Origin: a virus | Taxonomy: Duplodnaviria; Caudoviricetes | IMG/VR virus record: IMGVR_UViG_3300025154_000129 | Coordinates: 1-53,908 of that record | DNA length: 53,908 nucleotides | Direction: 5' to 3' (one strand) | The notes under the pieces: generated by a model | The model's database searches: none | What the model saw: the letters and a program-made list of their open reading frames with translations, nothing else | What the model was told of the DNA's origin: nothing | Program-made: the position numbers and the translations under genes | Part shown: in pieces, positions 1 through 53,908 of the stretch | Position numbering within the stretch: the first letter of the stretch is position 1 | Layout: each line of letters opens with the position of its first letter

Positions 1-132
1 GAGTTGTTTTGATATAGCAAGGAAAATTAAATCCTTGTGCTTTCCTTCAATCGAAAGTTACAGAACGAACTTTGAGTCATTGTAGAATTTGACGAGAAGG
101 TTGCTAGTTTGTAGATATGAAAGGATGAGTCA

Positions 133-3876: not shown

Positions 3877-3877
3877 T

Positions 3878-8851: not shown

Positions 8852-8860
8852 GGAGAAAAA

Positions 8861-11671: not shown

Positions 11672-11726
11672 GCGGTCTGCGAGGGATGCGGTGATAATGT
11701 TGCGACTCCTTTGTCGAGGACTGAGA

Positions 11727-12103: not shown

Positions 12104-12225
12104 GGTGCCTTCAATGGTTATAGGGTTTGAAGTGTCAGATTGGAAGTATCAGCAAGATACACCATAATGAAGACTGAGGGGAATGTAAGGAAACAATTAA
12201 AGTATTCAAAATTAAGGAGAAGAAA

Positions 12226-12600: not shown

Positions 12601-12685
12601 AGTATCCTTTTTGAAATAATACCGCAAGAAGAGGACAATAGGAAACTAAAGTCTATCTTCTTCGGTATTAAATGGAGATATTGAA

Positions 12686-13129
12686 ATGCAAATATCATGG
12701 TGGCAGCTTGTAAAATCAATTCCTGAGCTTCGTAAAGCTATTGCTCCTATTGGCGAGAGTAAAGATTGGTATCTATCCGAGACATACTGGGCAGCTATCA
12801 TCAAAGCAACATTTACGTTGCTTTCCTGTTTTGGGATCTATGTCGCCGCGACTGTCGAGCAGATCCAGACAATCAGCATAGCTATCCCGCTCATTATCGT
12901 GCCCGCATGTTCGGCCTTCACCTCGCTCGCCATGATGTGGCTGAGAAACAGGTCCTCGACGCCGATCTCGGGAACCGCGGCTTCGGCTGTGATTGGGGAT
13001 AATACGATTGTACTTCCATCGGGTACAGAGGTTGAGGATACCACTGAAGTTATTAAAACAGCACGGGAAGCAGGCAAGAACGTAGTTGTGATTGTTCCGA
13101 AGACGAGTGATAGTAACAGTGTTAAGTAA
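12686..13129 (+). CDS. Holin-like membrane protein
   Basis: KDWYLSETYWAAI motif followed by two hydrophobic segments and LRNRSSTPI, resembling small phage holins. Confidence 0.5.
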   Translation: MQISWWQLVKSIPELRKAIAPIGESKDWYLSETYWAAIIKATFTLLSCFGIYVAATVEQIQTISIAIPLIIVPACSAFTSLAMMWLRNRSSTPISGTAASAVIGDNTIVLPSGTEVEDTTEVIKTAREAGKNVVVIVPKTSDSNSVK

Positions 13130-13169
13130 TAAGAAAATGAAAAATCTTTTGTAGTAAAAGGAGTGAAGT

Positions 13170-13496
13170 ATGCCTTGGAATATCGAAGCTGCAATAAGAA
13201 GAATGGCTCCTCCTGAAAACGAGTTCAAGATAACCGCAGTAACAGTAAGATCAGGGGAAGCTGAGTTTGCTACACATCTAACAGGGGGACAAGGAAGAAC
13301 AGGGATATATGCTTATAATAATTCTAATGGCTCTAGTGGTGAATGTTATTGGGGAAGCTCTCCTTTAACACCAGCTAACGGAATGCCTATACCTGTAGGT
13401 TCTATAATAGAAGTTCTCATACCGCCTGCTCAAAATCCATATTTTTGTAGCTTGAGCGGAGAAATAGGGGATCTTAGAGTTCTTGAAGTATCGTAA
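13170..13496 (+). CDS. Hypothetical protein (probably virion-associated)
   Basis: 108-aa ORF with AAGGAG RBS in the late operon. Confidence 0.55.
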   Translation: MPWNIEAAIRRMAPPENEFKITAVTVRSGEAEFATHLTGGQGRTGIYAYNNSNGSSGECYWGSSPLTPANGMPIPVGSIIEVLIPPAQNPYFCSLSGEIGDLRVLEVS

Positions 13497-13507
13497 AGGA
13501 GTATCGA

Positions 13508-14089
13508 ATGAAAAGAATACCAGGCACTCAGCTCAAACAAGATCCTGTTGCAACTACAGCAGAAATGCAAGCAGGGGCAGAGACAAAACCACGAAGAGTA
13601 AGTCCTGTCCTTGTTTGGGAATCCATAGCTTCTTGGTGGTCTACAGTAGGCCGACTGGCTCCTGGGGACATCGGTGGTACGACGCCTGCCGCTGGCACAT
13701 TCACCACGCTGAACGGAGGCATAAAGCGGGAAGAAGTCCCGACCACCGGGAATCTAACGGTTCAGCAGATGCGTGGAACGCTCATCAGTAATTCGGGCCA
13801 GACCGTAGCCAACACGCAACAATGCCCAACGCTTACAGGGGAAATGAATGGGCTGGTGCAGGTCGAAACCGCAGGGGCGGGTGCATTCTACATCAAGACC
13901 GGCCCCAACGACCGACCTGGAATCTCATCCGGTGGGGTAATCACGTGGGGGAACAACGGCGATAAAGTTGGATTTGCGACTCCATCAGTTGGTGATTCTT
14001 TCACGTTTAAAACTATCAAGGTCGGTGTCGATGCCTTCGATCTCATAATTTATCCCGGCGAGGGTAATGTCGTGAACGGAGGCGCATAA
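13508..14089 (+). CDS. Tail fibre-related protein
   Basis: IGGTTPAAGTFTTL fibre-shaft motif; ATTAEMQAG; RBS AAGGAG. Confidence 0.55.
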   Translation: MKRIPGTQLKQDPVATTAEMQAGAETKPRRVSPVLVWESIASWWSTVGRLAPGDIGGTTPAAGTFTTLNGGIKREEVPTTGNLTVQQMRGTLISNSGQTVANTQQCPTLTGEMNGLVQVETAGAGAFYIKTGPNDRPGISSGGVITWGNNGDKVGFATPSVGDSFTFKTIKVGVDAFDLIIYPGEGNVVNGGA

Positions 14090-14091
14090 TC

Positions 14092-15048
14092 ATGGCTCAT
14101 CCAATAATTCTCGATAGACTAAAACAGGAGTGGTACGGGCCAACCTGGGTGCTCGATTCGGCCACGGGGATTTGGACGAATACGCCTACGTTGGGTGAAG
14201 AGTTGTTGACCAATGGCGACATGGAACTGTTTACGGGAACTCTAGCAGACAATTGTGCAACTCAAGTTGGAACGAGTACGACAATTGATACAATCAAGGA
14301 GGCTACAATAAAGCACGGAGGAAATTATAGCCAAGGCTTCAATAGATCCTCCGGTGTATCATTCGTTTTGGTAAAACAAACAACCAACCAAACAAATGGA
14401 TTTTATAGAGCAGATGTTTGGTTATATGGTGACAATAATGCAATTATGACAAAAATTCAGGAAAATGGGGGATCTTATACTAATTACACCGGTGATATTA
14501 GTTCAAATGTTCCAGAAAGCTGGAACAAACGAATACACACATATCTAAAATATGGAGTTGCATCTACTATGTTTATAGTGCAACGTAATGTCGATGGTGT
14601 TGTGTATTTTGATGATATGTCAGTTAAGCAAATTTCCCTTCCAACCCTTTTCAAAACCCGACTTTTCTCGTCTGCTCTCGGAGCGGTGAAGGCGAAACTG
14701 GTAAACTCTCCCAACGGCACGCAGGCAGGTGTCTGCATGGGCCTTGACAGTTATTCTGCTCCAACATACGGAGTGGTTGGCTATCACAACGGAAAGAACT
14801 GCAAATTGGAGTATTTCTTAAACGGTTCATGGACCACGACTATCAATTCAGCGGTTGCTTTTGTAGCAAACGCCCTGATTGAAATTGAGCATCCAGACAC
14901 AACGACATATAGGCTCAAGTATAACGGTTCTCAGATTTTGGGCGATATCACAATCAACGACGCCACGCTCAACGCGAGTAGGCGGCATGGTCTGATTTCG
15001 ACATACGGCGGGAATCGGATAAAGGAATTTTCGTTTGTTCCGGCGTAA
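14092..15048 (+). CDS. Carbohydrate-binding-domain virion protein
   Basis: GEELLTNGDME ... VYFDDMSVKQ, the boundaries of a CBM4/9-like jelly-roll; second beta-rich domain follows. Confidence 0.55.
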   Translation: MAHPIILDRLKQEWYGPTWVLDSATGIWTNTPTLGEELLTNGDMELFTGTLADNCATQVGTSTTIDTIKEATIKHGGNYSQGFNRSSGVSFVLVKQTTNQTNGFYRADVWLYGDNNAIMTKIQENGGSYTNYTGDISSNVPESWNKRIHTYLKYGVASTMFIVQRNVDGVVYFDDMSVKQISLPTLFKTRLFSSALGAVKAKLVNSPNGTQAGVCMGLDSYSAPTYGVVGYHNGKNCKLEYFLNGSWTTTINSAVAFVANALIEIEHPDTTTYRLKYNGSQILGDITINDATLNASRRHGLISTYGGNRIKEFSFVPA

Positions 15049-31297: not shown

Positions 31298-31651
31298 TTA
31301 GTGAGGTTTAAATTGCCAGACAAAAACAGGCTTACCTAACCTTTTCATCTCCTCAATCATATTGACAGAGCCTCGAGATTTGCCATCCCAACAAACTATA
31401 GCTGCGTCTGCGTACTCTGCCATTTCTTTATTTCGTATAAAGCCTGCTGATTTACCATATTTATCCCAATCAGCAGGAAACTCTTTTACAGAGATATTGT
31501 TGCGTTGCGCCCATTCCTTCCCATGAGAGTCTGCACCCCTTGCCATACCACATACAACTTCTGTGATATTTCGACCTGTACCTGACCAATCGACAGCTTC
31601 AATTACATCGGCGTACCTGGCTGTTCTGCTTCCTGCAATTACAACTTTCAT
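31298..31651 (-). CDS. SLOG / DUF2493 (YspA-like) protein
   Basis: VVIAGSR, VVCGMARGAD, FPADWDKYGKSAGFIRN.EM, WDGKSRGS. Confidence 0.85.
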   Translation of the reverse strand: MKVVIAGSRTARYADVIEAVDWSGTGRNITEVVCGMARGADSHGKEWAQRNNISVKEFPADWDKYGKSAGFIRNKEMAEYADAAIVCWDGKSRGSVNMIEEMKRLGKPVFVWQFKPH

Positions 31652-31662
31652 AATATCTCCTC

Positions 31663-32544
31663 TCATAAGTCAAAAGCGCCTGTAAATATTCCTTTTTTGT
31701 GTTTGAAAGCCCAAGGCCATTTAGGTAAAGCTTGTTCCATTCTGAGAAAGAAAAGCATATTCCACTTATCTCTTACAGAACAATCATTGCTCAAACCCGG
31801 TTCTTCTACAACCTCCTTTCCATTTTCAAAATGACTCTTGCCTAGTGTAAAACCTTCTCCACTGATAACTTCTTCCAAATACTCACGTTCTGTTACAGAC
31901 ATAGTTTGTAGGTGTTTATCTGCTTTTTCAAGAGATGGGGATTTAGTGGATACTTTGATTGTGTAAGGGGATCTATCATATCTGCCTTGTTTAGGAAATA
32001 AGATAATCCCATATCTACCAAATTGAACCCAACTTGTGCTATCGACAGAGAAGAAGGGATATTTATATAACAGATCGGGAGAGGTCATAGCAAATCCGTG
32101 AGTCTTCCATCTAGGCAAACAATCAGGATAATCACAAAGCATTCCGAATACTTTATCTGCAAAATCATAGTAATCCGATTTTGTCATGTCCTGACCTAAC
32201 CCGCCTATTCCTATGTACTCATACTTATCCATATACTTTCTTAACCATTTGAAATCTTCTTTTGGATGAAATACAGGCAGAGGTGACAATCCGTGTTCTT
32301 TCTCAAGATATTCTTGAACTCGCCAAGAAGCTTCCCCATTGAAAATAACGTCCACATTGACATAGATATCAATATGATCAAAATTTTGTTTTATGAATTC
32401 GGCATAGTCATCAACATATTTCCAAAACTCTTTTGTTTCTACATAAGAATAATCAATATCTCCTTTTCTTTTTGATCCTTTATGCAGACTTTTCATTACA
32501 CGCTCATACAAAGAGTGAGCGCCTGAATCAAGAAAACATTTCAT
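31663..32544 (-). CDS. dpdA: DpdA-like 7-deazaguanine DNA transglycosylase (TGT-like barrel)
   Basis: FLDSGAHS, YVNVDVI, PLPVFH, YIGIGG, HGFAMT, PFFSVDSTSW; clustered with folE/queD/queE. Confidence 0.75.
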   Translation of the reverse strand: MKCFLDSGAHSLYERVMKSLHKGSKRKGDIDYSYVETKEFWKYVDDYAEFIKQNFDHIDIYVNVDVIFNGEASWRVQEYLEKEHGLSPLPVFHPKEDFKWLRKYMDKYEYIGIGGLGQDMTKSDYYDFADKVFGMLCDYPDCLPRWKTHGFAMTSPDLLYKYPFFSVDSTSWVQFGRYGIILFPKQGRYDRSPYTIKVSTKSPSLEKADKHLQTMSVTEREYLEEVISGEGFTLGKSHFENGKEVVEEPGLSNDCSVRDKWNMLFFLRMEQALPKWPWAFKHKKGIFTGAFDL

Positions 32545-32545
32545 A

Positions 32546-32881
32546 TCATCCTCTTTCTACTATCGCACCGTTTTCACCATCTTCAGATATCTCAACCCTG
32601 AAAGCATCAAAATGCTCAAGCAAATCTTCAGCTATCATCTCACACGAAACTCCTGTGCGAGGACGAGCTTGAGATGAATCCCATCTGTTTTTTATGTAAT
32701 CTTCTACCTTCCATTTAGTTTCGATAAACTCAATATCCCTATCGCTATGCGATACCTCAAACAACATCTTCACATGAAAGATATGCCTATGGGTAGAACG
32801 TAAAAAAGACAAATGAACAGGAGCATCAGGCCAATTATGGTACCCTTCAAACTGAGTTGTTAACCACACATAAATTTTCAT
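32546..32881 (-). CDS. dpdL: QueD-paralog T-fold protein, DpdL-like (putative CDG decarboxylase)
   Basis: FEGYHNWPDAP..FLRSTHRHIF (LxxxHRHxF instead of QueD CxxxHGH), DRDIEF, SCEMIA, SEDGENGA. Confidence 0.65.
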   Translation of the reverse strand: MKIYVWLTTQFEGYHNWPDAPVHLSFLRSTHRHIFHVKMLFEVSHSDRDIEFIETKWKVEDYIKNRWDSSQARPRTGVSCEMIAEDLLEHFDAFRVEISEDGENGAIVERG

Positions 32882-32882
32882 T

Positions 32883-34022
32883 CTACCAATCCTTTTTGGG
32901 GTACTGTTGTGTTCCTTGCATAACATTCAACATTCTCAACCAACTGTAATCATAGGGAAGGTAAATCCAATCAACATACTTGATTCCTCCGAAATTGATC
33001 TCCTGAAGTATCTTATTCGCAGCGGATTGAACATCGTTTTTTACATACATCATATCGTAGGCATATTGCAAAGCTTCAGGGAAACTAAGGTAGTTAGGAT
33101 ACACAGGAATGCAACCACAAGTTGTTGCTTCTAGTAAAGTCCAGCTTACAAAGTCCTGATGGGCGCAATTGAATTGAATTTTTGATTCCAACAGATTGTG
33201 GTAATATTCCTCTTTTGTGAGATTGATTTTGATATCAAAGTTATCAGGATACTTATCTTTGTAGCGATACACCTTGTCAATAAGCTCAGGGTTGTTAGAT
33301 CGTAGTTCAGGGGAGGATGTGGTCACTAAGAAATTGATGTAGTCATTTCCTGATTCGAGTATTTCATCAACAACGGAAAGAAAGAACAAAGGATCTTTTT
33401 CTTCATCCCACCTCGAAGTGAAAATTATTTGATTCTTCTTTTTCGGAAGTGTGCCAGGAAAGTGAGTTCTAACTTCATCACTATTGTAAGGCAAACCCGT
33501 GATATGTACTGTTTCTTCACTCCCTACGCCTGCATACAAGCATAGATCTCTCAGACAGGTGCTGGTTACAAATATGCCATCAAAGAAATTGCCTTGCCCT
33601 ACTTCAAAGTGTCGCATCCATTTTCTCATAGGGTATGTAAAATCATAAATGTCAACAGTTTGGGCATGGAGCATGGCAAATATTTTAGGTTTAATACCTG
33701 TTAGATGAAAAGCGTAGGGAAGAGCTTCTATACCCGGCGTCCAAAAATCATCAAGATAAATACAATCATCTGAGCTTATTTCTCCCTCATTTAATTTCCT
33801 TAGAAAATTCTGAATTTGACTACATGACCAATAACCTCGACCGCAAGCATCTAAAACGCTACCTGATCTTATATCATCATTTAGGCTTGCTCCTTCTATT
33901 CTTTCATAATTTAAACCTATTTGATTCCATCTTGACTCTAACCATCCCTCTTTTTCCTTCGACAACTGACAAGTATATCGAGAACGATAAGGTTCTAAAG
34001 GAAAATACCATAACTTTCTCAT
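32883..34022 (-). CDS. GT-B (GT4-like) glycosyltransferase
   Basis: IIFTSRWDEEKDP, KEEYY..L..SKIQFNC..QDFVSWTLLEATTCGCIPVYPN..SFPE donor-binding motif. Confidence 0.85.
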   Translation of the reverse strand: MRKLWYFPLEPYRSRYTCQLSKEKEGWLESRWNQIGLNYERIEGASLNDDIRSGSVLDACGRGYWSCSQIQNFLRKLNEGEISSDDCIYLDDFWTPGIEALPYAFHLTGIKPKIFAMLHAQTVDIYDFTYPMRKWMRHFEVGQGNFFDGIFVTSTCLRDLCLYAGVGSEETVHITGLPYNSDEVRTHFPGTLPKKKNQIIFTSRWDEEKDPLFFLSVVDEILESGNDYINFLVTTSSPELRSNNPELIDKVYRYKDKYPDNFDIKINLTKEEYYHNLLESKIQFNCAHQDFVSWTLLEATTCGCIPVYPNYLSFPEALQYAYDMMYVKNDVQSAANKILQEINFGGIKYVDWIYLPYDYSWLRMLNVMQGTQQYPKKDW

Positions 34023-34471
34023 ACAACCTCCTTATCTGTTTTGTATAAAATATCGTCAGGTTCTGTAAAATATTTGCTTTTCATCTCAAACCAGACTACC
34101 TCTTTCTTTTCATTTACCAATTTGATATCAAAACATCCCATAAAATCAAAATCAAAAGCAACCGGCAAAGTAAGAACTACTTTTATATTATCAGGTTGCA
34201 TATATGCAAGATTATCCCATATCTTTGCATATTGCTCAGGATTGTTTATTTCTATAACAACCTCTGATTCTTTTGTTAGATGCTCAAGCAATTCAACATT
34301 AATATCAGAAATGCCTTGGTTATTGTTTGCTCCGAAATAGACTCGTTTTATCTCAGGGTTTTCACTCAGGATTTTCAAGATCTCATTGTTGCCTACATCT
34401 TTAGACCCGATGAATAAAGTAAGAGCTCCTTTATCAGGACCCTCTGCTTCATTTCCTATGAATAGTTGCAT
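34019..34471 (-). CDS. Hypothetical protein in the modification cluster
   Basis: FIG.EAEG..G..TLFI, RVYFGAN; between folE and the glycosyltransferase, overlapping the latter. Confidence 0.7.
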   Translation of the reverse strand: MQLFIGNEAEGPDKGALTLFIGSKDVGNNEILKILSENPEIKRVYFGANNNQGISDINVELLEHLTKESEVVIEINNPEQYAKIWDNLAYMQPDNIKVVLTLPVAFDFDFMGCFDIKLVNEKKEVVWFEMKSKYFTEPDDILYKTDKEVV

Positions 34472-34475
34472 CTTC

Positions 34476-35054
34476 TTATCTCCTCATCATTAATGATAAT
34501 TCAATCATTTTTATAGCCTTTTCTTCCAAGACTGATATTTCTTTGAAAGAACCTCTAACCACAGATGTTATCATTCCCGAATCAGGTTCTTCTATGCCTC
34601 TGTGTGCCATGCATCCGTGGACAGCATCTATGTAGATCATACAACCTTGCGGCTGTATATTAGTTTCAAATCTGTCAAGAATGAGTTCTCCTAGCGACTC
34701 TTGAAGAATAGGTTGTTTTGAATAATGTTTAATCAAACGAGCAGGTTTGCTTGCTCCTATTAGCACTCTATCCGGAATGTAGAAGAACCAAGCATATCCT
34801 GATACAGGAAGAAAATGATGAGGGCAGATAGAAATGAAACTTATCTTAGGAAATGAAATGATCTGATCATAGTTATACTCATTAGGAAAACAGGCGTAAT
34901 CATCAAATTCTGTATCACAATTACAAAGAAACTCCTTGCAATACATTTTAGCTATTCTCTTAGGAGTATCTTTATAATTGGGATTGTGAATATTGAGATC
35001 CAAACCTGTTTCTAACATAGATCGAATACAATGTTCGACATGTTTCTGATCCAT
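34476..35054 (-). CDS. folE: GTP cyclohydrolase I
   Basis: DTPKRIAKMY, SICPHHFLP, Y.P...IGASK..R, LQE, AVHGCM..RG. Confidence 0.92.
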   Translation of the reverse strand: MDQKHVEHCIRSMLETGLDLNIHNPNYKDTPKRIAKMYCKEFLCNCDTEFDDYACFPNEYNYDQIISFPKISFISICPHHFLPVSGYAWFFYIPDRVLIGASKPARLIKHYSKQPILQESLGELILDRFETNIQPQGCMIYIDAVHGCMAHRGIEEPDSGMITSVVRGSFKEISVLEEKAIKMIELSLMMRR

Positions 35055-35091
35055 TTATTCTCCAACAGAATAGTGAAACGGAAAGCAAAGG

Positions 35092-35130
35092 AAGATAGAG
35101 GCTTACCTATACTAAGAAAGCCTCTATCTT
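35092..35130 (-). terminator. 13-bp perfect hairpin (terminator or attenuator) upstream of folE
   Basis: AAGATAGAGGCTT-N13-AAGCCTCTATCTT; pyrimidine-rich tail on the minus strand. Confidence 0.5.
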
Positions 35131-35139
35131 AAATTGAAA

Positions 35140-35796
35140 CTACATTTTTTCTTGTTCGATCTTAAAAAAAGATACTTCGGCTTCTCCTACTTTCTTTTTC
35201 GTTTCTGTGAGAGTAAGAGTAGGTCTTTTATCTTTGATATGCTTGAGATGGGACTGGATACGAAACTTCTTACAGGTACATTTCTCTGCTATTTCGTCCA
35301 AAGTTCCACCTTCCCAAAGAGCATCGTCAATCGCTGCTGCTTGAGTTCCTATCAAATGGCCATATCGAGATCGAGGGAGGTCCTGAATAGGCATACGCTC
35401 ACGAGGTTTCTTCTCTTTCGGTTCAGCAGGCTTGTCTCCTTCCGCTTTCTCTTTCTTAGGACGACCTCTCTTCTTAGGCTCCTCGGTCTTTGCCTCTTCT
35501 TTCTTTTCAGGTTCTGGTTCAGGAGCAGGTTCGTTGCCCTCATCTGAGTAAACAGCATTGTAAAAATCTACTGCGACTTTTGCTTTCTCCGCAAGTTCTT
35601 TTGTTGCTACGGGATCAGGATCATCAGATCCTTCTTTGTAAAGAATACTATCGAACTTCTCAGTGAAAACCTTGAGCAAAGCTTCTTTGCCTGTTCCTAC
35701 TATGCGAATCTTCACATCTCCGAGAAGCCCACTTTCATTGATCGCTTTAGCTGCCGTTTGCAGCTCCTTCGACTTGATATCTTCCAACTTTTTCAT
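35140..35796 (-). CDS. Lys/Glu/Pro-rich protein with AT-hook-like motif and C-terminal HTH-like region
   Basis: KKRGRPKK; GGTLDEIAEKC...RIQSHLKH. Confidence 0.6.
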   Translation of the reverse strand: MKKLEDIKSKELQTAAKAINESGLLGDVKIRIVGTGKEALLKVFTEKFDSILYKEGSDDPDPVATKELAEKAKVAVDFYNAVYSDEGNEPAPEPEPEKKEEAKTEEPKKRGRPKKEKAEGDKPAEPKEKKPRERMPIQDLPRSRYGHLIGTQAAAIDDALWEGGTLDEIAEKCTCKKFRIQSHLKHIKDKRPTLTLTETKKKVGEAEVSFFKIEQEKM

Positions 35797-35804
35797 TGTA
35801 TCTC

Positions 35805-36086
35805 CTATTTGTCGTTCAGTTCGTTCTTGGTTTCTCTGGCAGCTTTAAACTTGATCAATTTTGACTCAGGGATCTCAAGTGCTTCCCCTGTCCTGGGATT
35901 ATGTCCTGTTCGTACAGGGCGAATAGCTATCTTGAACTTCCCAAACCCATGAATTGCAACCTCTTCCCCTTGCATCAACTTTACCTTTATCTCAGTGAAG
36001 ATATAATCAACGATCCCCTTTGCTTTGTCCTTGTTCACCCCTTCAATGTTCTTCCTGATACCATCAATCAGATCTGCCTTTGTCAT
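35805..36086 (-). CDS. hup: HU/IHF-family DNA-binding protein
   Basis: MTKADLI, GFGKF, RTGHNPRTGE, FKA. Confidence 0.92.
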   Translation of the reverse strand: MTKADLIDGIRKNIEGVNKDKAKGIVDYIFTEIKVKLMQGEEVAIHGFGKFKIAIRPVRTGHNPRTGEALEIPESKLIKFKAARETKNELNDK

Positions 36087-36155
36087 TCTTGTTTCTCCTT
36101 GATTGTTTTGATTTTTTACTCCCTTCAAGCACCTTGCTTGATTTCGATTGTTATT

Positions 36156-36185
36156 ATTATACTAGCACACTTTTTAAAAAGTGAA
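36156..36185 (-). promoter_or_regulatory. Sigma70-like promoter overlapped by a 16-bp palindrome
   Basis: Minus strand TTCACT-N18-TATAAT; CACTTTTTAAAAAGTG palindrome at 36168-36183. Confidence 0.45.
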
Positions 36186-36217
36186 GCGAAAAAGTTAAAG
36201 GGTTGAGAAAAAAACCT

Positions 36218-36877
36218 CTATTTCAGACCAAGGAGCTTATGTACTTGAATATTCAGATAAAAATCGTTTATGCCTTGCGCTTCTAGCTCTCGGAGTATGT
36301 AGTGATGTCCTATTATAGTATCATCAGGGTTTATTTTGTTGAGAGGGGAGAAAGCAAATTGAGCATGACATAAACGACCATCTTTCAACTGTCTGTATAC
36401 TTCGATAGCTCTTTTCAAGTCAAGCTCAGTTCCTATAACGAACTTTACAAAATCTCTCGGTCGCAATCCATTGAAGTTGAACATATTCATTCTGTCTTCC
36501 ATACCTGAACTAGGTAGCTTATAATCCACAACAAAACTATTTACTCCGTAACCGAAAGCAGCAATTGTTCCGTTAGTCTCAATCGAAACAATCTTTTTCT
36601 CCACATTCAGTTCCCTGGTCAGATCAAATACGTTTTCTTGTAGAAGAGGCTCACCACCTGTTATTGTGACTTTCTTTGTCTTGCACTCCTTTACAATATC
36701 AATAATATTCATTTCAGTTCCTGAAGCAAAACTCTGAGCTTCAGGTGTGTCACAAGCTCTACAACGCAAATTGCACCCTGCCAAACGAATAAATGTTGTG
36801 ATTCTTCCTTGTCCTGTATTGCACACTTCACCTTCTATACTTCTAAAAATCTCTTTCACTTTCAGAGTTTTCATCAT
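36218..36877 (-). CDS. queE: 7-carboxy-7-deazaguanine synthase (radical SAM)
   Basis: EIF.SIEGE, FIRLAGCNLRCRACDT, TGGEPLLQ, IETNG, KFV, Q.HK. Confidence 0.92.
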   Translation of the reverse strand: MMKTLKVKEIFRSIEGEVCNTGQGRITTFIRLAGCNLRCRACDTPEAQSFASGTEMNIIDIVKECKTKKVTITGGEPLLQENVFDLTRELNVEKKIVSIETNGTIAAFGYGVNSFVVDYKLPSSGMEDRMNMFNFNGLRPRDFVKFVIGTELDLKRAIEVYRQLKDGRLCHAQFAFSPLNKINPDDTIIGHHYILRELEAQGINDFYLNIQVHKLLGLK

Positions 36878-37235
36878 CCCCTCTTTTTGTTCTCTCTCTG
36901 TTCGCTGTTTCTAGTTTGAACTTCAATTTCTTCCTCATCTCTTCGTTAAAAATAACTTTCCTTAAAGCCTCTTCATCAGCACTTAGTATCTGACAACACC
37001 AAACAAAAGAACCAGGTCTATTACTATTCGATTCAAACCATTTGAAAGCTGACTGTCTATCTGTTTCAATCTCTTGTTTTTTTGCTGTAGTAGATACTTT
37101 ATCCAAATCTGTTATTGCAGACAAAATCATCTCTCTGAATAGATCCTTATTAGCTTCTTTATCATACACTTTTCTACCTTTCTTTTGTCCATTCTGTATA
37201 TGAGGTTGAAGTTTCCCAGAACCTGATTCTCTCAA
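36843..37235 (-). CDS. Hypothetical protein (true start probably downstream)
   Basis: LF..MI..AI.D, A.KWF, GSFVWCC..L pattern seen in small phage proteins. Confidence 0.55.
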   Translation of the reverse strand: MRESGSGKLQPHIQNGQKKGRKVYDKEANKDLFREMILSAITDLDKVSTTAKKQEIETDRQSAFKWFESNSNRPGSFVWCCQILSADEEALRKVIFNEEMRKKLKFKLETANRERTKRGDDENSESERDF

Positions 37236-37545
37236 GAACTATTTCAGAATTTTCCAATGTAGTATTGAGTTTATCTGCTATCCATGTAACCACGTTCTCT
37301 GAAGTGGGGTTATCAAAAAGCGTATTGAGGTCTTTATGATCCAAATGCTTTACGATATCAACATCAACCATATCCTTCAGCTTTTTGAAATCGCAGATGA
37401 AACCTGTTTCAGGATCTACTCCGTATCTATTTGATACAGTTATTTCTATAATAGCGTTATGTCCATGAGGATTTTTGCAATCACCTTCGTACTTAGGAAG
37501 ATGATGAGCATAAGAAATTTCAAACAATTTCGTAACGGTTTTCAT
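37174..37545 (-). CDS. queD: 6-carboxytetrahydropterin synthase
   Basis: AHHLP.Y.G.C.NPHGH, DF..LK, LDH..LN, PTSEN, WET. Confidence 0.92.
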   Translation of the reverse strand: MKTVTKLFEISYAHHLPKYEGDCKNPHGHNAIIEITVSNRYGVDPETGFICDFKKLKDMVDVDIVKHLDHKDLNTLFDNPTSENVVTWIADKLNTTLENSEIVLERIRFWETSTSYTEWTKER

Positions 37546-37922
37546 AAGTAAGATCTCCTATAAGCGTAAAAATCATCAATTTGTCTGCCTTCTTCTACCT
37601 TGACTGCATCTTCATCATCATGATGAGTGGAAACTTCAAGCAAGATAGAACTCACCATAGAACTGAAACGATGCTTTGTATGAGGAGGAACAATAACAGA
37701 TTGGCCCTCTTTCATCAGTGTTCGTGTACTTTCAATCTCAATCCTAACAATTCCTTTCAAAATGTAGAAAGTTTCATGTTTGACGGGGTGATAATGAAGA
37801 CTGCATTGAAACCCCGGTTTGATATGAAGTAACTTACCACAATACATTTCATTATTCACTATGATTTCTTCACGTCCCCACAGCTTTTCTACTTTCTTGA
37901 TTTTGTTGTTAAAATGCATCAT
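37542..37922 (-). CDS. Cupin, sugar isomerase-like
   Basis: VEKLWG.E, YCGK, CSLHYH..KHETFY, HRF, EVST. Confidence 0.8.
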   Translation of the reverse strand: MMHFNNKIKKVEKLWGREEIIVNNEMYCGKLLHIKPGFQCSLHYHPVKHETFYILKGIVRIEIESTRTLMKEGQSVIVPPHTKHRFSSMVSSILLEVSTHHDDEDAVKVEEGRQIDDFYAYRRSYL

Positions 37923-47909: not shown

Positions 47910-48152
47910 TTATTTCAGGTTGCGTCGTTTTTTCATTTCTTTGTAATCAACAATGTCGCCTGATGGTATCATTTTGAACATTCCATCTTCCAAGGGATCG
48001 CAACCGTAATCTTCTCCCGGTATTCTTACTATGGGTTTAGCAATGTAAGTCTCGGGATCTTTCCCCATAGAAAAAGCCATGAGTCTTGTCTGGCCATCAC
48101 CTGTAGTATGATCAAAAGGATATAAGTGCTTGGGTTTTTTATTCTTGCTCAT
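47910..48152 (-). CDS. Hypothetical protein
   Basis: Start after the GGGAGAATTAAAATG leader; DYGCDPL.DG.FKM.PSGD. Confidence 0.6.
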   Translation of the reverse strand: MSKNKKPKHLYPFDHTTGDGQTRLMAFSMGKDPETYIAKPIVRIPGEDYGCDPLEDGMFKMIPSGDIVDYKEMKKRRNLK

Positions 48153-48230
48153 TTTAATTCTCCCTTCTAGTTTCATGCTATTAACTGTAATCTATAATAG
48201 CATGAAACTAGATTACAAGATAGATTTTTA

Positions 48231-48871: not shown

Positions 48872-49199
48872 TTTCTCTCCTCTCTTTTTTAAGAACCCAT
48901 TCCATCGCTTCTTTCAAACTATTTTTCTTTTCTACTATCATACCCTCTGAGCCACTTCTTAATGAGATGATCAAATAATTATTAGTAATCTCAAAAGGGT
49001 ATTCTCTAATGTTAAATTCTCTTTTCTCTGTTTTCCACTGTTTGTGTTCTTTGTCGTAGGTATATCCCAACGTGAATTTCTCTTTCATGATTATCCTCCT
49101 AGCATGTCCAGAAAATTCAAACTTCTGTTTCTTTTGACAATGACAGGTTCCTCTTTTTTCTTTTCTTGTGATTTTGTCCATAGGTACACTTCCCAACAA
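48837..49199 (-). CDS. Hypothetical protein (start probably MKEKF)
   Basis: ORF in the early cluster with an internal AGGAGG RBS. Confidence 0.45.
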   Translation of the reverse strand: MLGSVPMDKITRKEKRGTCHCQKKQKFEFSGHARRIIMKEKFTLGYTYDKEHKQWKTEKREFNIREYPFEITNNYLIISLRSGSEGMIVEKKNSLKEAMEWVLKKERRENEEEKEPKDGK

Positions 49200-49450
49200 T
49201 CTTGCAGAGTTCCCAGAGTAATCCTGATAATTTTTGTTGTTGTTTTAGAATCATCGGGGACAGGGAGAAGTACGTCTTTGCTGGAAGGCTTGATAGTCAT
49301 TCCTGTTCTAGCTTTGACGTACTTCAAAAATTCCAGATCATCCCAATCAAAATCGTATTCAGTTATTTTGACTAGAATGTCTGGTATTTGGCAAATAGTT
49401 ATAGGTTGTGGTCTTTTCCATCTTGTTTGACGGAATACAGAGTGAGCCAT
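49091..49450 (-). CDS. Hypothetical protein
   Basis: ATG after GAGGAG; co-oriented. Confidence 0.55.
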   Translation of the reverse strand: MAHSVFRQTRWKRPQPITICQIPDILVKITEYDFDWDDLEFLKYVKARTGMTIKPSSKDVLLPVPDDSKTTTKIIRITLGTLQDCWEVYLWTKSQEKKKEEPVIVKRNRSLNFLDMLGG

Positions 49451-49454
49451 ACTA

Positions 49455-49652
49455 CTACTCCTCTTTTTTATACAGGTATTTTACAAAGACATAGCGCCAT
49501 CCATCAAAGTGCCGAAGGTAAGCAAGATCGACTTTGCCCTTCAGATTGCCCTTGTAAAATAACTCTGCTTTTTTCACAGTCATTTCCTCGGTTACTACTT
49601 TAATCTTTCCTTCCTCCATTTCAGGAGTTTTGAAACATAGCTGAACTCTCAT
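49455..49652 (-). CDS. Hypothetical protein
   Basis: Starts at the repeated GAGAGAAAGGAGAATTAAAATG leader. Confidence 0.65.
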   Translation of the reverse strand: MRVQLCFKTPEMEEGKIKVVTEEMTVKKAELFYKGNLKGKVDLAYLRHFDGWRYVFVKYLYKKEE

Positions 49653-49710
49653 TTTAATTCTCCTTTCTCTCTCATTGTTAATTTCCTACTTCTAGCTTAT
49701 TCTAGTGCAG

Positions 49711-49741
49711 GAGAGAAAAGGCAGCGAAGCTGCCCTCTCTC
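49711..49741 (-). terminator. Intrinsic terminator, copy 1
   Basis: GGCAGC-TTC-GCTGCC followed by TTTTCTCT on the minus strand. Confidence 0.75.
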
Positions 49742-49748
49742 TTACACA

Positions 49749-50618
49749 CTAGACCCAAGCAGGATTTCTATTCTCAGTAATCATAAACAAATCCCAGAGG
49801 GTCTTGTCAACAATCTTGTTATACTCTGCCCTTGCAGGATCGACAATCTTGTCAAACTCTGCCCTTGCAGCATTGACAATCTTGTCACGCTCTGCCCTTG
49901 CAGCATTGACAACCTTGTCAAACTCTGCCCTTGCAGCATTGACAATCTTGTCAAACTCTGCCCATGCAGCATTGACAATCTTGCCAAACTCTGCCCTTGC
50001 AGCATTGACAATCTTGACACACTCTGCCCTTGCAGGATCGACAATCTTGCCAAACTCTGCCCTTGCAGGATCGACAATCTTGTCAAACTCTGCCCATGCA
50101 GCATTGACAATCTTGTCAAACTCTGCCCTTGCAGGATCGACAATCTTGTCAAACTCTGCCCTTGCAGGATCGACAATCTTGTCACGCTCTGCCCTTGCAG
50201 GATCGACAATCTTGTCACGCTCTGCCCTTGCAGCATTGACAATCTTGTTATACTCTGCCCTTGCAGCATCGACAATCTTGTCAAACTCTGCCCTTGCAGC
50301 ATCGACAATCTTGTCACGCTCTGCCCTTGCAGCATCATTCAACAACCCTACAGGGCATCCCATGCCTCTAAACTTTCCCGCTTTGATCGCTTCAACGATT
50401 TCAGCGGGAAAGTTTAGAGGCGTACTGAAATCAGTACACTCTCTCTGTACCCCACCTTCAAAACCCCCATAGAACCAACGCAATGCACCATGGCCTACAA
50501 GATCATCATCGTCCCCGCAATGCTCGCGGAGTTCGATGCCTCTCTTGCTCGCCAAGTCCGCCGATGTTAGAAAATAATTCTTACCGTCTTTTTCAATCCA
50601 AGAAACAAATTCACACAT
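49749..50618 (-). CDS. Hendecad-repeat protein, 16 units of [DN][AP]A[RW]AExxK[IV]V
   Basis: MCEF.SW N-domain, 16 x 33-bp tandem repeat, conserved C-tail ENRNPAWV; strong RBS. Confidence 0.85.
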   Translation of the reverse strand: MCEFVSWIEKDGKNYFLTSADLASKRGIELREHCGDDDDLVGHGALRWFYGGFEGGVQRECTDFSTPLNFPAEIVEAIKAGKFRGMGCPVGLLNDAARAERDKIVDAARAEFDKIVDAARAEYNKIVNAARAERDKIVDPARAERDKIVDPARAEFDKIVDPARAEFDKIVNAAWAEFDKIVDPARAEFGKIVDPARAECVKIVNAARAEFGKIVNAAWAEFDKIVNAARAEFDKVVNAARAERDKIVNAARAEFDKIVDPARAEYNKIVDKTLWDLFMITENRNPAWV

Positions 50619-50710
50619 TTTAATTCTCCTTTCTCTCTGGTTTGGGTTTGATACTTCGCCTCACAACACTTGAGCCTGACGAACGGTGTTTTGCTCGCAG
50701 GCTCCTTGCG

Positions 50711-50908
50711 CTAAGAGGCAGGATTCAATCTTGCGTTTATCAGAGACAATCGGAATCTGAAAGCATCTGTTTCTTTTCCAAAGTATGCAATAATACCTGT
50801 TTCGTCTGTAACAGCGTGCCAACTTTGTATTGCAGAGTCAGACATTTCGTTTTCCCATTGGTAAGGATCTATGACCGAAATTTCTTCCAAAAGATCATTC
50901 AAGTTCAT
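50711..50908 (-). CDS. Hypothetical protein
   Basis: W.AVTDE.GIIAYF..E.DAFRFRL..IN..LN; AAGGAG RBS. Confidence 0.7.
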   Translation of the reverse strand: MNLNDLLEEISVIDPYQWENEMSDSAIQSWHAVTDETGIIAYFGKETDAFRFRLSLINARLNPAS

Positions 50909-50921
50909 CTAATTTCTCCTT

Positions 50922-51125
50922 TCAATAACTCACTTTTCTGTAAAGAAGGTCATCGAACAGAACCATAATTTCCCCTGTTTCTGTGATAACCGCTCTACTG
51001 TTCACGTCACTTACAACATAAGCCCTAGACCAGCGAAGTCCTCCTTCTTTTGATCCTTCAAGTTCGTAAACATCATCCCCAGGCATCAAATTTTCCCATC
51101 GAACTTGTTCATAATGGGACATCAA
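50922..51125 (-). CDS. Hypothetical protein
   Basis: AAGGAG RBS, coupled to the upstream gene. Confidence 0.55.
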   Translation of the reverse strand: MMSHYEQVRWENLMPGDDVYELEGSKEGGLRWSRAYVVSDVNSRAVITETGEIMVLFDDLLYRKVSY

Positions 51126-51310
51126 TTCTCCTTTTTCAGTATAGCTTCGACAGTAGTTCGATAGGAAAGTTCAGGATCGGGAGTGCAGGGGATCTGATCT
51201 TTCCCTTCTTTCCAGTGCTCGATCAAACGATCCCAAAACTCTGCCGTTGCTTCCAGATCCTCTTGACTAACATCTTCAAACGATCCGTCCTTCAACTGCA
51301 CTCTTTCCAC
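51122..51310 (-). CDS. Hypothetical protein
   Basis: AAGGAGG RBS, GTG start. Confidence 0.55.
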   Translation of the reverse strand: MERVQLKDGSFEDVSQEDLEATAEFWDRLIEHWKEGKDQIPCTPDPELSYRTTVEAILKKEN

Positions 51311-51346
51311 TCTATTCCTCCTTCTATTCTCCTTTAAGTTATTTGC

Positions 51347-51847
51347 CTACTCTATGAGCCGTTCTTGATGGATGATTTTTGCTTCTCTTGCCTTCTTGCC
51401 AAACTGTTCTACAAATGAAGACAAATCTCTAACCAGTCCTTGCAGATGTGGAATGTATTCATCAAACAACCACATCATACTTTCTTTTGCTTCTTCCAAA
51501 GATATTTCAGGGTCTGCACAAGGAACTTTCTTAAATCTGGGCGCTCTCCTTTTTATCTGAGATTCATCTTTTCCGTTATTTTCTTTTCGTATAGCAGGAG
51601 GGCGAGAAACAAAAGCTCGGTCGATGTTGTCCAGTTCAGCTCTTTCAGGACATCTGTAAATATCTTTACCATCCATAGTGATAACACCTGTTCGACTTAT
51701 GTTTCTGAGATAGGCTGATACAGTGGCGTAGTTGCCCCCGCTGTATTCGTGGACTTCTTTGGTAGTGAATCGTCTTACCCCTTTAAGCTCTACAATTACT
51801 TTGAGGGAGTCAATAGTCCTGTCAAGAACGGTACCCTTTCTTATCAT
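51347..51847 (-). CDS. Winged-HTH-like protein
   Basis: FTTKEV....GGNYATVSAYLRN....GVI...G..Y; starts at the repeated leader. Confidence 0.6.
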   Translation of the reverse strand: MIRKGTVLDRTIDSLKVIVELKGVRRFTTKEVHEYSGGNYATVSAYLRNISRTGVITMDGKDIYRCPERAELDNIDRAFVSRPPAIRKENNGKDESQIKRRAPRFKKVPCADPEISLEEAKESMMWLFDEYIPHLQGLVRDLSSFVEQFGKKAREAKIIHQERLIE

Positions 51848-51905
51848 TTTAATTCTCCTTTCTCTCTCATTGTTAATTTCCTACTTCTAGCTTATTCTAG
51901 TGCAG

Positions 51906-51936
51906 GAGAGAAAAGGCAGCGAAGCTGCCCTCTCTC
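51906..51936 (-). terminator. Intrinsic terminator, copy 2
   Basis: Same hairpin as 49711-49741. Confidence 0.75.
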
Positions 51937-51943
51937 TTACACA

Positions 51944-52582
51944 CTAGACCCAAGCAGGATTTCTATTCTCAATAATCATAAACAAATCCCAGAGGGTCTT
52001 GTCAACAACCTTGTCAAACTCTGCCCTTGCAGGATCGACAATCTTGTCAAACTCTGCCCTTGCAGGATCGACAACCTTGTCAAACTCTGCCCTTGCAGGA
52101 TCGACAATCTTGTCAAACTCTGCCCATGCAGCATTGACAATCTTGTCACGCTCTGCCCATGCAGCATCGACAATCTTGTCATACTCTGCCCTTGCAGCAT
52201 ACCTAACCTTGTCATACTCTGCCCTTGCAGCATTGACAATCTTGACACACTCTGCCCTTGCAGGATCGACAATCTTGTCAAACTCTGCCCTTGCAGCATC
52301 ATTCAACAACCCTACAGGGCATCCCATGCCTCTAAACTTTCCCGCTTTGATCGCTTCAACGATTTCAGCGGGAAAGTTTAGAGGCGTACTGAAATCAGTA
52401 CACTCTCTCTGTACCCCACCTTCAAAACCCCCATAGAACCAACGCAATGCACCATGGCCTACAAGATCATCATCGTCCCCGCAATGCTCGCGGAGTTCGA
52501 TGCCTCTCTTGCTCGCCAAGTCCGCCGATGTTAGAAAATAATTCTTACCGTCTTTTTCAATCCAAGAAATAAATTCACACAT
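51944..52582 (-). CDS. Hendecad-repeat protein, 9 units
   Basis: Paralog of 49749-50618; start set at ATG 52582 after the shared leader (212 aa). Confidence 0.85.
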   Translation of the reverse strand: MCEFISWIEKDGKNYFLTSADLASKRGIELREHCGDDDDLVGHGALRWFYGGFEGGVQRECTDFSTPLNFPAEIVEAIKAGKFRGMGCPVGLLNDAARAEFDKIVDPARAECVKIVNAARAEYDKVRYAARAEYDKIVDAAWAERDKIVNAAWAEFDKIVDPARAEFDKVVDPARAEFDKIVDPARAEFDKVVDKTLWDLFMIIENRNPAWV

Positions 52583-52683
52583 TTTAATTCTCCTTTCTCT
52601 CTCGTTTGGGTTTGTTGGATCATACACTAGATCCGTTCTAGGGCATGAAGGAAAGCATAATTTCTTATGCTCTCCCTTATAAC

Positions 52684-52902
52684 CTAGCTTGCCATGCTAA
52701 TCAAAAACTGCCGATCTTTTCTTCTGAAGTGGACTTTGAATGGTTTCATCTCATACCAAGAACTTTGACCTGATCCGTTCCTGATATTATCACAGATTTC
52801 ACAAAGTTGCTTTTGTTGTTCCGCGATGCAGTTCTTTTTTGATACTAATCCGAGTGAATTGACATACTTCAGACAATCATCAAAAGACTCGATTAGGATC
52901 AT
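52684..52902 (-). CDS. Hypothetical protein
   Basis: ATGA overlap with the upstream gene. Confidence 0.55.
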   Translation of the reverse strand: MILIESFDDCLKYVNSLGLVSKKNCIAEQQKQLCEICDNIRNGSGQSSWYEMKPFKVHFRRKDRQFLISMAS

Positions 52903-53621
52903 GACAGCTCCCTTCTTCTTTCACCTGCAATAGGCTTCGTAAGAGAAAGTTTGCTCCCTGCTTCAGCTCCTCTCATCCAAGCCTCTCTTGATCCGGATGC
53001 TTTCCAAGGTCTTCCTGTTTTCACATTAGGAAACTCTTGTTTCAGGTACTTATCGACCGTATCTTTTTTAACCACGATCAGAGCTTTGCACGTTGAAATT
53101 TCGTTCCTTCTTTGGTACATGTCAGCAAGTCTCCAAGTGATCTTTGTTACCATCCCTTGCTTGAAAGATTCTCTGTCTTTTCCTTCTCTGGGAACTTCGA
53201 TTTTACTGATTTTCCCGACAGACCTTCTTACATACAAGTGCATCCACTTTGCGATTTCAACGTCGCCTTTCTGGCCTATGAAAATGATGCCCCACTCACC
53301 CCAAGTCCCTCCGTACTTTCTGTTTAGGGTGATACAGTCGAAAGCTTTTGAGATGCCTGCAGCGAGAACAGATTCCCACATCTGGAATTTGCCCATTCCT
53401 CCTACTACTTCGTTGCACATTCCTTTCATCAATGCTTCCTCTTGGGTCATAGGAGATCCATTTTCAGGAATGTCAAGCATTGATAAAGAATATTTCTCCA
53501 TGATAGAGGTTGCTTTCTCCATTGCAAGTTGCGCCTCATGTTCATTCGGCGATGTAGCAAGGGCAAGAAGTTTCTGGAGAAGGTTTGTGATTTTGGTTTT
53601 CTCTTCCGGTGAAAGTTTCAT
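52899..53621 (-). CDS. DUF2786-domain protein
   Basis: KI...LQKLLALATSPNEHEAQLAMEKA...MEKY; FIG...DV; SF..G; G..AG. Confidence 0.85.
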   Translation of the reverse strand: MKLSPEEKTKITNLLQKLLALATSPNEHEAQLAMEKATSIMEKYSLSMLDIPENGSPMTQEEALMKGMCNEVVGGMGKFQMWESVLAAGISKAFDCITLNRKYGGTWGEWGIIFIGQKGDVEIAKWMHLYVRRSVGKISKIEVPREGKDRESFKQGMVTKITWRLADMYQRRNEISTCKALIVVKKDTVDKYLKQEFPNVKTGRPWKASGSREAWMRGAEAGSKLSLTKPIAGERRRELS

Positions 53622-53908
53622 TTTAATTCTCCTTTCTCTCTCATTGTTAATTTCCCACCTCTAGCTTATTCTAGTGCAGGAGAGAAAAGGCAGCGAAGCT
53701 GCCCTCTCTCTTACACACTAGACCCAAGCAGGATTTCTATTCTCAATAATCATAAACAAATCCCAAAAGGTCTTGTCAACAATCTTGTTATACTCTGCCC
53801 TTGCAGCATACCTAACCTTGTCATACTCTGCCCTTGCAGGATCGACAATCTTGTCAAACTCTGCCCTTGCAGGATCGACAATCTTGTCACGCTCTGCCCT
53901 TGCAGCAT
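53619..53908 (-). repeat. Cassette repeat copy 3 (cut by window edge)
   Basis: Same leader, terminator (53680-53710) and gene 3' end; offset 3969 bp from copy 1. Confidence 0.95.
53718..53908 (-). CDS. Hendecad-repeat protein, third paralog (3' part, about 4 units visible)
   Basis: Hand translation ..AARAERDKIV DPARAEFDKIV DPARAEYDKVR YAARAEYNKIV DKTFWDLFMIIENRNPAWV*. Confidence 0.85.
   Translation of the reverse strand, partial: AARAERDKIVDPARAEFDKIVDPARAEYDKVRYAARAEYNKIVDKTFWDLFMIIENRNPAWV

Follow-up and report, generated by a model that had tools for sequence, protein, structure and literature searches.

At its right end, the IMG/VR virus record IMGVR_UViG_3300025154_000129, which was analyzed whole (linear, 53,908 bp; hereafter, the window), carries, on the minus strand, the same unit three times. 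This unit is a cassette made of a leader, a gene coding for a protein with internal repeats (the repeat gene), a hairpin, and the same leader again, which reads into a different gene every time. The anatomy of the cassette, its multi-copy state, the different neighbors at the same junction, one tandem junction, and a position-specific variability of the repeats were all seen directly. We consider that a terminator/leader module resembling the promoter early stem-loop (PeSL) of T4-type phages has probably carried the whole gene to at least five to seven sites by recombination at the common leader and that the copies have since been homogenized, a reading to which we assign a probability of about 0.6.

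Anatomy of the cassette array

Along the minus strand, the order of the unit is a leader ending in ...GAGAGAGAAAGGAGAATTAAAATG, the repeat gene, its stop codon, a GC-rich hairpin with a T-run, a spacer of ~45 nt, and the same leader at the ATG of a different gene. A repeat search of the window recovered a 296-nt repeat family with left ends at 49644, 51839, and 53613 (92 to 94% identity) and a 27-nt leader family at 49650, 50616, 51845, 52580, and 53619. The leader has 24 nt and includes a Shine-Dalgarno sequence. AAAGGAG-N8-ATG is invariant in the three window copies and in a second IMG/VR record (G001), and the two leaders of a metagenome contig (L037; both are described below) keep the Shine-Dalgarno sequence with one or two bases of the 8-nt spacer changed. 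In some copies, up to ~45 nt of leader is common to both ends. The 21-nt core of the leader occurs five times exactly in the window and once more with three mismatches at 48150; the expected count was 0.02, and none of 100 shuffles reached six.

When the three 3' ends were aligned (alignment A1), they agreed at all but a few bases over a stretch that starts in the final codons of the repeat gene and takes in the stop codon, the hairpin (core GGCAGC-TTCG-GCTGCC, then TTTTCTCTCC), and ~45 nt to ...GAGAGAGAAAGGAGAATTAAAATG, the similarity ending directly past the ATGA of the next gene. At the 5' ends of copies 1 and 2 (alignment A2), similarity begins ~34 nt upstream of the ATG, and a single difference was found in the first 291 coding bases, which code for the head domain of the protein. 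The tandem 33-nt arrays that follow the head contain 16.0, 9.0, and at least 3.9 units in copies 1, 2, and 3, respectively (TRF), copy 3 being cut by the end of the contig.

Copy 1, with 5' leader, repeat gene, hairpin, spacer, and second leader, occupies 49653..50650 on the minus strand, as delimited by the limits of similarity in A1 and A2 and by repeat families D2 and D3. Its gene (49749..50618, minus strand) codes for 289 aa with a head of ~95 aa, 16 units of 11 aa (TRF 49810-50336, period 33, 16.0 copies), and the tail KTLWDLFMITENRNPAWV. Copy 2 covers 51848..52614, also on the minus strand, with a gene of 212 aa and nine units at 51944-52582 (open reading frame [ORF] list, A1, A2, and TRF). 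The minus-strand copy 3 (53622..53908) is interrupted within its 33-nt array (repeat search, ORF list, A1, and TRF).

The GC-rich, terminator-like hairpin with its T-run lies at 49720-34, 51915-29, and 53689-703. In copy 1 it forms the core (49720-49734 and then the T-run) of a long minus-strand hairpin over the stop codon (49695..49760) that also covers a TAGAAT box. RNA folding gave this extended structure -40.3 kcal/mol and a z score of -5.1, with 0 of 200 shuffles equally stable. From its sequence, the stem-loop of the cassette is a predicted terminator or attenuator.

Different genes follow each copy. The second leader of copy 1 (49650..49676, minus strand; repeat search, A1, and leader-core count) ends at the ATG of a 65-aa ORF (49455..49652, minus strand) without a family match in Pfam or PHROGs. 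Copy 2 leads into a minus-strand block of four small ORFs, located between copies 2 and 1 (50711..51847) and without Pfam matches, that is headed by one of 166 aa (51347-51847) and continues with ORFs of 62, 67, and 65 aa. Between copies 3 and 2 (52684..53621, minus strand), copy 3 precedes a 240-aa protein (52899-53621) with the domains DUF2786 and DUF7168 (Pfam E values of 2.2e-11 and 1.7e-13; phrog_421, E 1e-38), which is followed by a 72-aa ORF. Thus, the repeat search and both alignments bear out what a preliminary description of this DNA had read from the letters alone, namely, an array of at least three near-identical units that differ at a few bases and have another next gene each time. 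The winged-helix label (wHTH) that it had given to the 166-aa protein was not confirmed, since this protein had no Pfam match and no PDB relative by sequence, and its sole PHROG match was "Ren-like" at E 0.0048.

Further copies and variant junctions

Two other pieces of DNA extend the array. IMG/VR record G001 (20,233 bp), found by its head domain, has two copies (A and B) with a 279-aa ORF between them and ends at a copy. Metagenome contig L037 (2,642 bp), found by a leader scan, overlaps the end of G001 (99.85% identity over 683 nt) and runs through copy B, a leader, a 294-aa DUF932 protein, a leader, a copy of 256 aa, and a hairpin with a leader directly into the next copy. Seven 3' flanks could be compared; that of G001 copy B, which the contig end truncates, represents the same locus as the first one of L037. 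In the window, G001, and L037, these flanks differ by few bases in their common parts, yet they lead to six different continuations; five of the six distinct junctions enter different unique genes, and one goes from cassette to cassette.

We also aligned the public k-mer contigs of four groundwater runs to positions 48,900-53,908, with runs X1 and X3 best covered. A contig of 1265 nt spans the whole insert block between copies 2 and 1 (50609-51873) and another of 1071 nt the DUF2786 block (52577-53647), both reaching into a cassette at either end. An insert bounded by cassette on both sides implies that every genome with that insert contains two copies or more. The depths of the inserts were 172.9, 159.4, and 153 in X1 (two inserts plus the contig that leads from the third insert towards the replication genes) and 23.4 and 25.4 in X3, and this equality argues for one genome carrying all the inserts. 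Cassette pieces had depths of 555.6 and 669.7 in X1 and 93.6 and 103.3 in X3, ca. 3.4 to 4.2 times those of the inserts, a ratio that is not a copy number, as depth alone cannot tell n copies per genome from n single-copy strains. The array is very unlikely to be an assembly artefact.

Alternative flanks at the cassette borders appeared in runs X1, X3, and X5. Loose ends in X1 match the flanks of G001, one translated as SEVECMTGNF and the other as MTREEKLVAIC, the start of the 279-aa ORF, and therefore pieces of the window type and of the G001 type were present in one sample. In X1 and X5 (loose end at 49648), the cassette leader is joined to an 80-aa gene starting at 48,152, a junction that would drop ~1.5 kb with the 65-aa ORF and the small genes after it. 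The leader-like sequence before that gene (48150..48176, minus strand; three mismatches in 21) is a possible partner for such a deletion. The repeat gene also stands behind a different leader in X1, X3, and X5, and another gene was found to share the leader and some ten initial codons. A head-domain contig of X5 (depth 14, compared to 3.8-5.9 for the inserts) passes into the 3' flank of a further cassette, the same tandem junction as in L037. The X3 joint 52603->53618 (depth 12.5, side 30) was not interpretable and was not used.

Some side observations concern these copies and their leader. One X1 contig tracks the window to 51296, inside the 62-aa ORF, and then continues in unrelated sequence; the breakpoint of this insert-block variant is not at a leader. 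Copy A of G001 (locus L045) has five clustered synonymous changes within 7 nt (coding bases 134-140), by which Ala-Leu-Arg codons are recoded, and copy B has five clustered changes at bases 168-176 that turn VQR into IQK; these patches suggest short gene-conversion tracts from a more distant homologue. Protein P0005 (223 aa, 10 units) shares the C-terminal units and the tail with the cut copy 3, of which it may be the full form. P0002 (190 aa, 7 units) starts like copy 1 with nine units fewer; it may be a genuine length variant, or else its array collapsed during assembly. A 23-mer of the leader was also found exactly in four otherwise unrelated metagenome contigs (L036, L039, L040, and L041) before unrelated genes, where it may reflect chance, a shared style of ribosome site, or a distant link.

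The source is a tailed phage of roughly 90 kb from groundwater, siphovirus-like and not T4-like; the CheckV completeness estimate for the window is 58%, and its GC content is ca. 39%. By PHROG matches, the plus strand codes for a tape-measure protein, a J-like tail fiber, and minor tail proteins (133-15,048). A replication and recombination module on the minus strand includes DNA polymerase, clamp, clamp loader, a UvsX-like recombinase (phrog_97, E 4.2e-34), single-stranded DNA-binding protein, exonucleases, and a RusA-like resolvase, together with DnaB-like and superfamily-2 helicases (the latter matching phrog_16) and a primase. From ~49 kb to the end of the window there are small genes without family matches, all on the minus strand. 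G001 carries on its plus strand a terminase, a head protease, and an E-type major capsid protein, which are absent from the window, and hence the two look like complementary parts of one genome type. That they derive from one genome would rest on this complementary gene content and on the G001-type flanks in run X1. If the records belong together, the composite map would read early genes, A, 279 aa, B, DUF932, C, D, a gap, copy 3, DUF2786 plus 72 aa, copy 2, four small ORFs, copy 1, 65 aa, and replication genes, with six to seven copies in the array; if not, there are at least three.

A cluster of 7-deazaguanine genes of the queuosine/archaeosine type (31298-37922), with tRNA-ribosyltransferase-like, GTP cyclohydrolase, QueE-like, and QueD-like genes, probably indicates that the phage modifies its DNA. 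Searches of IMG/VR with the DUF2786 insert and the helicase detected no close relatives of the phage. Twelve loci of the repeat-gene family sit in metagenome-assembled genomes of unrelated phyla, probably as mis-binned phage contigs, and a tRNA scan found no tRNA in the window; no host was assigned.

The repeat protein and its family

The repeat gene is a member of a large phage-only family. Its head domain was found in 432 representative proteins (E <=0.001), almost always from residue 1, and the nearest clusters in the ESM Atlas were all viral and unnamed; the nearest homologues in other phages have protein identities of <=75%. In an alignment of 40 sequences (A3), the invariant residues were Met1-Cys2, Gly27, Gly42-His43-Gly44, Glu60, Phe64, Phe70-Pro71, and, in the tail, Arg207 and Trp211, with Cys61, Thr62, and Asp63 nearly invariant (>=90%). 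When 86 sequences were aligned (A4), only Gly42, His43, and Pro71 were still invariant. Cys2, His43, and Cys61 may form a zinc-binding site.

An AlphaFold2 model (pLDDT 94.8) placed a small alpha/beta head next to two antiparallel helices formed by the repeats (95-147 and 152-201), with the tail coming back towards the head. The protein is thus predicted to be lollipop-like, with a small head, a two-helix hairpin of nine to 16 eleven-residue repeats, and a conserved returning tail. Fold matches of the whole model were helical hairpins only (among them the colicin E2/E3 receptor domain and F-BAR, E 0.5 or worse). The weak or compositional family matches of the protein, such as those to DivIVA, ATP synthase b, tape measure, and Cas5a (E 0.008), were discarded as coiled-coil noise. 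The protein database gives Pfam PF28068 for the four closest proteins; our Pfam scan of the repeat protein yielded weak compositional matches, none over the threshold. No BFVD match reached E <=0.001, and the one at rank 10, a 95-aa protein of an uncultured phage, is probably a family member.

The variation among the repeat units is concentrated in certain codons and mostly changes the protein. Relative to the major codon at each position, the 69 units examined have 153 non-synonymous and 12 synonymous differences. Codons 2, 4, and 8 are constant, third base included, and the variable ones are 1 (A/P), 3 (R/W), 6 (F/R/Y/C), 7 (D/N/V/G), 9 (I/V), and 11 (D/N/Y), which gives 39 distinct 33-mers among the 65 units of five full copies. 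Within 44 other family members, variability peaks at unit positions 1, 3, 7, and 10 (mean entropy 1.17-1.26) and is low at positions 2, 4, 5, 6, 8, and 9 (0.24-0.49). Judging by helix geometry, positions 3, 7, and 10/11 would lie on one helix face. The repeats would then combine a constant framework with a variable stripe, by analogy with repeat proteins that bind diverse targets, and from this pattern we propose that the protein is an early host-directed binder, of which several diversified copies might raise both dose and breadth.

Most members of the family are not amplified. Only two of 68 IMG/VR family loci (G001 and L125) have two head domains within 3 kb either side, and in only four of 44 single-copy loci does a stretch of >=12 nt from the leader recur downstream; amplification is lineage-specific. 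In L125 (positions 1-3929 of a 33,417-bp IMG/VR record), 24-aa MORN-like repeats take the place of the 11-aa units behind the same head. There, a 53-nt element with a hairpin, an AT-box, and a ribosome site occurs four times and separates two genes of this type (85% identity in the first 300 nt), a gene of repeats only, and an insert of 114 aa, a layout indicating that the same kind of arrangement arose independently at least once more. Thirteen of the 68 family contigs (L058-L125) end <=61 nt past the matched part of the gene, and copy number is therefore probably under-counted in the database.

The head-domain codons of copy 1 also contain a perfect 19-bp hairpin (50364..50421, minus strand), repeated at 52328-52385 in copy 2 (inverted repeats I2 and I3). 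With an inner 5-bp stem, it covers codons ~66-86, and RNA folding gave -41.5 kcal/mol and a z score of -8.6 in both copies. In L092 (about 3195-3280), a locus with 50% protein identity in its best matching segment, these codons also form a hairpin, in which three base pairs are changed in a compensatory manner. In 45 of the 48 rows scored across family loci the z value was above -4; the in-gene hairpin is thus selected in a few lineages only. A role in RNA processing or as a recombination hot spot is conceivable.

Origin of the array and relation to known systems

We infer the recombination mechanism, the part played in it by the phage recombination genes, and the benefit from the features described above. 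The cassette starts and ends with the same leader, so that exchange at the leader can place a unit or remove the DNA between units. Homologous recombination or template switching there would insert, delete, or duplicate the unit before any leader-bearing gene, and it would leave every ribosome site and start codon intact and translation undisturbed. Continued exchange among the copies would keep head and flanks near-identical and reshuffle the internal repeats. One difference in 291 nt between copies, against <=75% protein identity to other phages, suggests that the unit spread recently or that gene conversion is continuing. The phage might benefit from making more of an early protein, and more versions of it, to bind a host target that varies.

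Several statements of the preliminary description can be revisited here. It had attributed to the phage recombination genes of its own, and the UvsX-like recombinase (phrog_97) and the superfamily-2 helicase (phrog_16) are indeed present. It had also looked to extension beyond the contig and to related DNA for more copies and other cargo, and G001 and L037 supplied both: further copies, the 279-aa ORF and DUF932 at the same junction, and one junction without an insert. The ready-made expression signal that it ascribed to the unit survives in part, as a leader with a Shine-Dalgarno sequence and not as a promoter, for which the sigma-70 scan of the cassette was empty. Its platform for swapping modules agrees with borders at the shared leader, by which any two copies give homology to delete, duplicate, or swap the intervening DNA, and with the other inserts and flanks; however, the evidence fits equally well a single gene that was amplified and diversified, with its neighbors caught in between.

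A number of points weigh against the spread of a PeSL-like module with its gene. All the DNA evidence comes from short-read assemblies or k-mer contigs, and hence errors are possible in the insert order, the units per copy, and the exact copy number. In such contigs, excised circles and arrays give identical junctions. Each variant junction is known from one contig or from a loose end of 14-30 nt, and these are leads rather than proof. Outside the cassettes, the window and G001 share no DNA. A sigma-70 consensus scan found no promoter in any cassette flank (the host may use another promoter type), and the sole promoter-like feature, the TAGAAT box past the hairpin core, lacks a -35 partner and lies inside the extended hairpin. 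The promoter half of a PeSL-type module is therefore unsupported. The repeat protein had no family match in Pfam, PHROGs, NCBIfam, or PADLOC beyond weak or compositional ones, and the head alone (model pLDDT 90.2) found no convincing counterpart among solved structures (best VIA Z 3.0, best Foldseek E 1.5), which does not prove a new fold.

A second reading, which we regard as possible but rather tentative, takes the array as a repertoire. The copies would be a small multigene family whose helical hairpin shows a hypervariable stripe (unit positions 1, 3, 6, 7, and 11), recombination would make new combinations of repeats, and the proteins would bind variable host proteins or defense factors early in infection. 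The in-gene palindrome could then be a break or pause site that drives exchange. Such a system would recall the cassette-based variation of bacterial and parasite surface antigens and the repeat-variable residues of transcription activator-like (TAL) effectors.

It is unlikely that the array reflects dosage alone, i.e., a "genomic accordion" in which the gene was amplified because the phage gains from a higher yield of the protein, the intervening genes came along as passengers or were inserted later, and no cargo is exchanged. The tandem cassette-to-cassette junctions in L037 and in run X5 and the cassette depth of ~3.4-4.2 times the inserts would be expected from it, and there are precedents in the lab-evolved T4 that amplifies an early anti-defense gene at short homologies (PMC9391042) and in the SegB-driven amplification (PMC13096335). 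However, simple segmental amplification repeats everything between its junctions, and here five of six distinct junctions enter different unique genes. Moreover, the copies have unequal numbers of repeats and differ in the units that make them up (39 distinct 33-mers in 65 units), and their borders lie exactly at the common leader instead of at arbitrary microhomologies. Simple tandem segmental amplification does not fit, as inserts differ between copies and only one of six junctions is cassette-to-cassette.

More doubtful still is a selfish mobile element, in which the head would be an enzyme (a nuclease or recombinase) moving its own gene to leaders in the manner of homing endonuclease genes. 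The insertion precisely between ribosome site and start codon, the strong palindrome in each copy, and the invariant or near-invariant Cys2, Gly42-His43-Gly44, and Glu60-Cys61-Thr62-Asp63 of the head would suit an enzyme of this kind. However, the head has neither similarity to a nuclease or recombinase family nor a fold match (VIA Z 3.0, Foldseek E 1.5), 66 of 68 loci have a single copy within 3 kb either side, 40 of 44 lack a repeated leader of >=12 nt, and a long, variable coiled-coil or MORN-type repeat region is atypical of homing enzymes. The repeat gene itself is thus probably not the mobile agent.

We consider it very improbable that a single cassette per genome was turned into an apparent array by the chaining of strain variants or the collapse of repeats. 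Assemblers do stop at repeats, as this record does inside a copy and 13 of 68 family contigs do <=61 nt past the matched part of the gene; the arrays of 300-530 bp are longer than short reads; and depth does not separate n copies in one genome from n single-copy strains. Yet each insert is one contig with cassette at both ends, insert depths are near-equal (153 to 173 in X1; 23.4 and 25.4 in X3), the independent assemblies of the window, G001, and L037 agree in architecture, and the copies carry distinguishing base differences.

Least credible of all is that the 33-nt arrays act as DNA (origin iterons, packaging sites, or protein-binding arrays) with an incidental frame: they are regular tandem repeats at several places of the early region with a palindrome nearby, but every copy keeps an open frame, the head is common to 432 representative proteins, an 11-residue period persists in 44 other members whose DNA and residues are quite unlike, the changes depend on codon position and are mostly non-synonymous, and L125 joins the same head to 24-aa MORN-like repeats. 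An integron cassette array was discarded because none of the 66 window ORFs scanned against PHROGs was an integrase and the borders are a ribosome-site leader instead of an imperfect palindromic attC, and a diversity-generating retroelement because there was no reverse transcriptase among the scanned ORFs and the variable bases (G/C, A/T, C/T, and G/T/A at codon positions 1 and 2) are not confined to adenine. A CRISPR-like reading was rejected as well.

The natural multi-copy array, the junction variants in the population, and the large uncharacterized family with position-specific hypervariable repeats make this system worth following. If the array is a diversified repertoire or a dosage response to host defense, the family would be a good candidate for a new class of early host-takeover or counter-defense proteins, and the array a natural phage gene amplification caught in the wild. 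On the practical side, the gene breaks phage assemblies, as seen in the 13 of 68 contigs that stop at it.

Among known systems, the closest is the PeSL of T4-type phages, described by Arbiol et al. (2010; PMC2839356) and Comeau et al. (2014; PMC4122927) as an upstream stop codon, stem-loop, promoter, Shine-Dalgarno sequence, and start codon that serve as exchange points and give rise to mini-circles. Like the PeSL, the present element is a composite intergenic module, in which the stop codon of the upstream gene precedes a stem-loop and then the Shine-Dalgarno sequence and ATG of the downstream gene. It is likewise repeated among small uncharacterized genes of a plastic early region, where, in the PeSL model, homologous exchange adds, deletes, or swaps genes and the repeats provide them with expression signals. 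Gene gains, losses, and replacements also map to the module here, with six continuations after the same 3' flank, all from short-read assemblies. In contrast to the PeSL, a sigma-70 promoter was not found in the present module, and the phage is not a T4-type myovirus, given its tape-measure protein, J-like central tail fiber, lambda-like minor tail genes, and the E-type capsid protein in G001. Furthermore, the PeSL is a control sequence of ~100 bp, whereas the present unit measures 0.77-1.0 kb, includes a whole gene, and is near-identical at five or more sites.

Two other systems share some of these traits. In the T4 dmd-tifA amplification and the SegB-driven T6 amplification of early anti-defense loci (PMC9391042 and PMC13096335), an early gene is also raised in copy number with its expression signals by recombination, and tandem junctions are possible. 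Those amplifications are simple tandem ones, obtained under laboratory selection and with arbitrary microhomology borders, whereas the present copies are natural and mostly dispersed among different genes, have a defined leader at their borders, and have diversified internally. The Campylobacter group II phages CP21, CP220, and CPt10 have long, very similar repeat regions between unique parts of the genome which, according to PMC4546147, also break assemblies, vary in unit number, and are proposed as recombination targets. Those repeats are non-coding units of 72-86 bp that flank large modules and enclose a few ORFs, whereas the present repeat is a coding gene with its terminator and leader. 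Thus, the known kind of process is PeSL-type shuffling, and what is new is that the same logic multiplies a whole, internally hypervariable gene in an unrelated, siphovirus-like groundwater phage.

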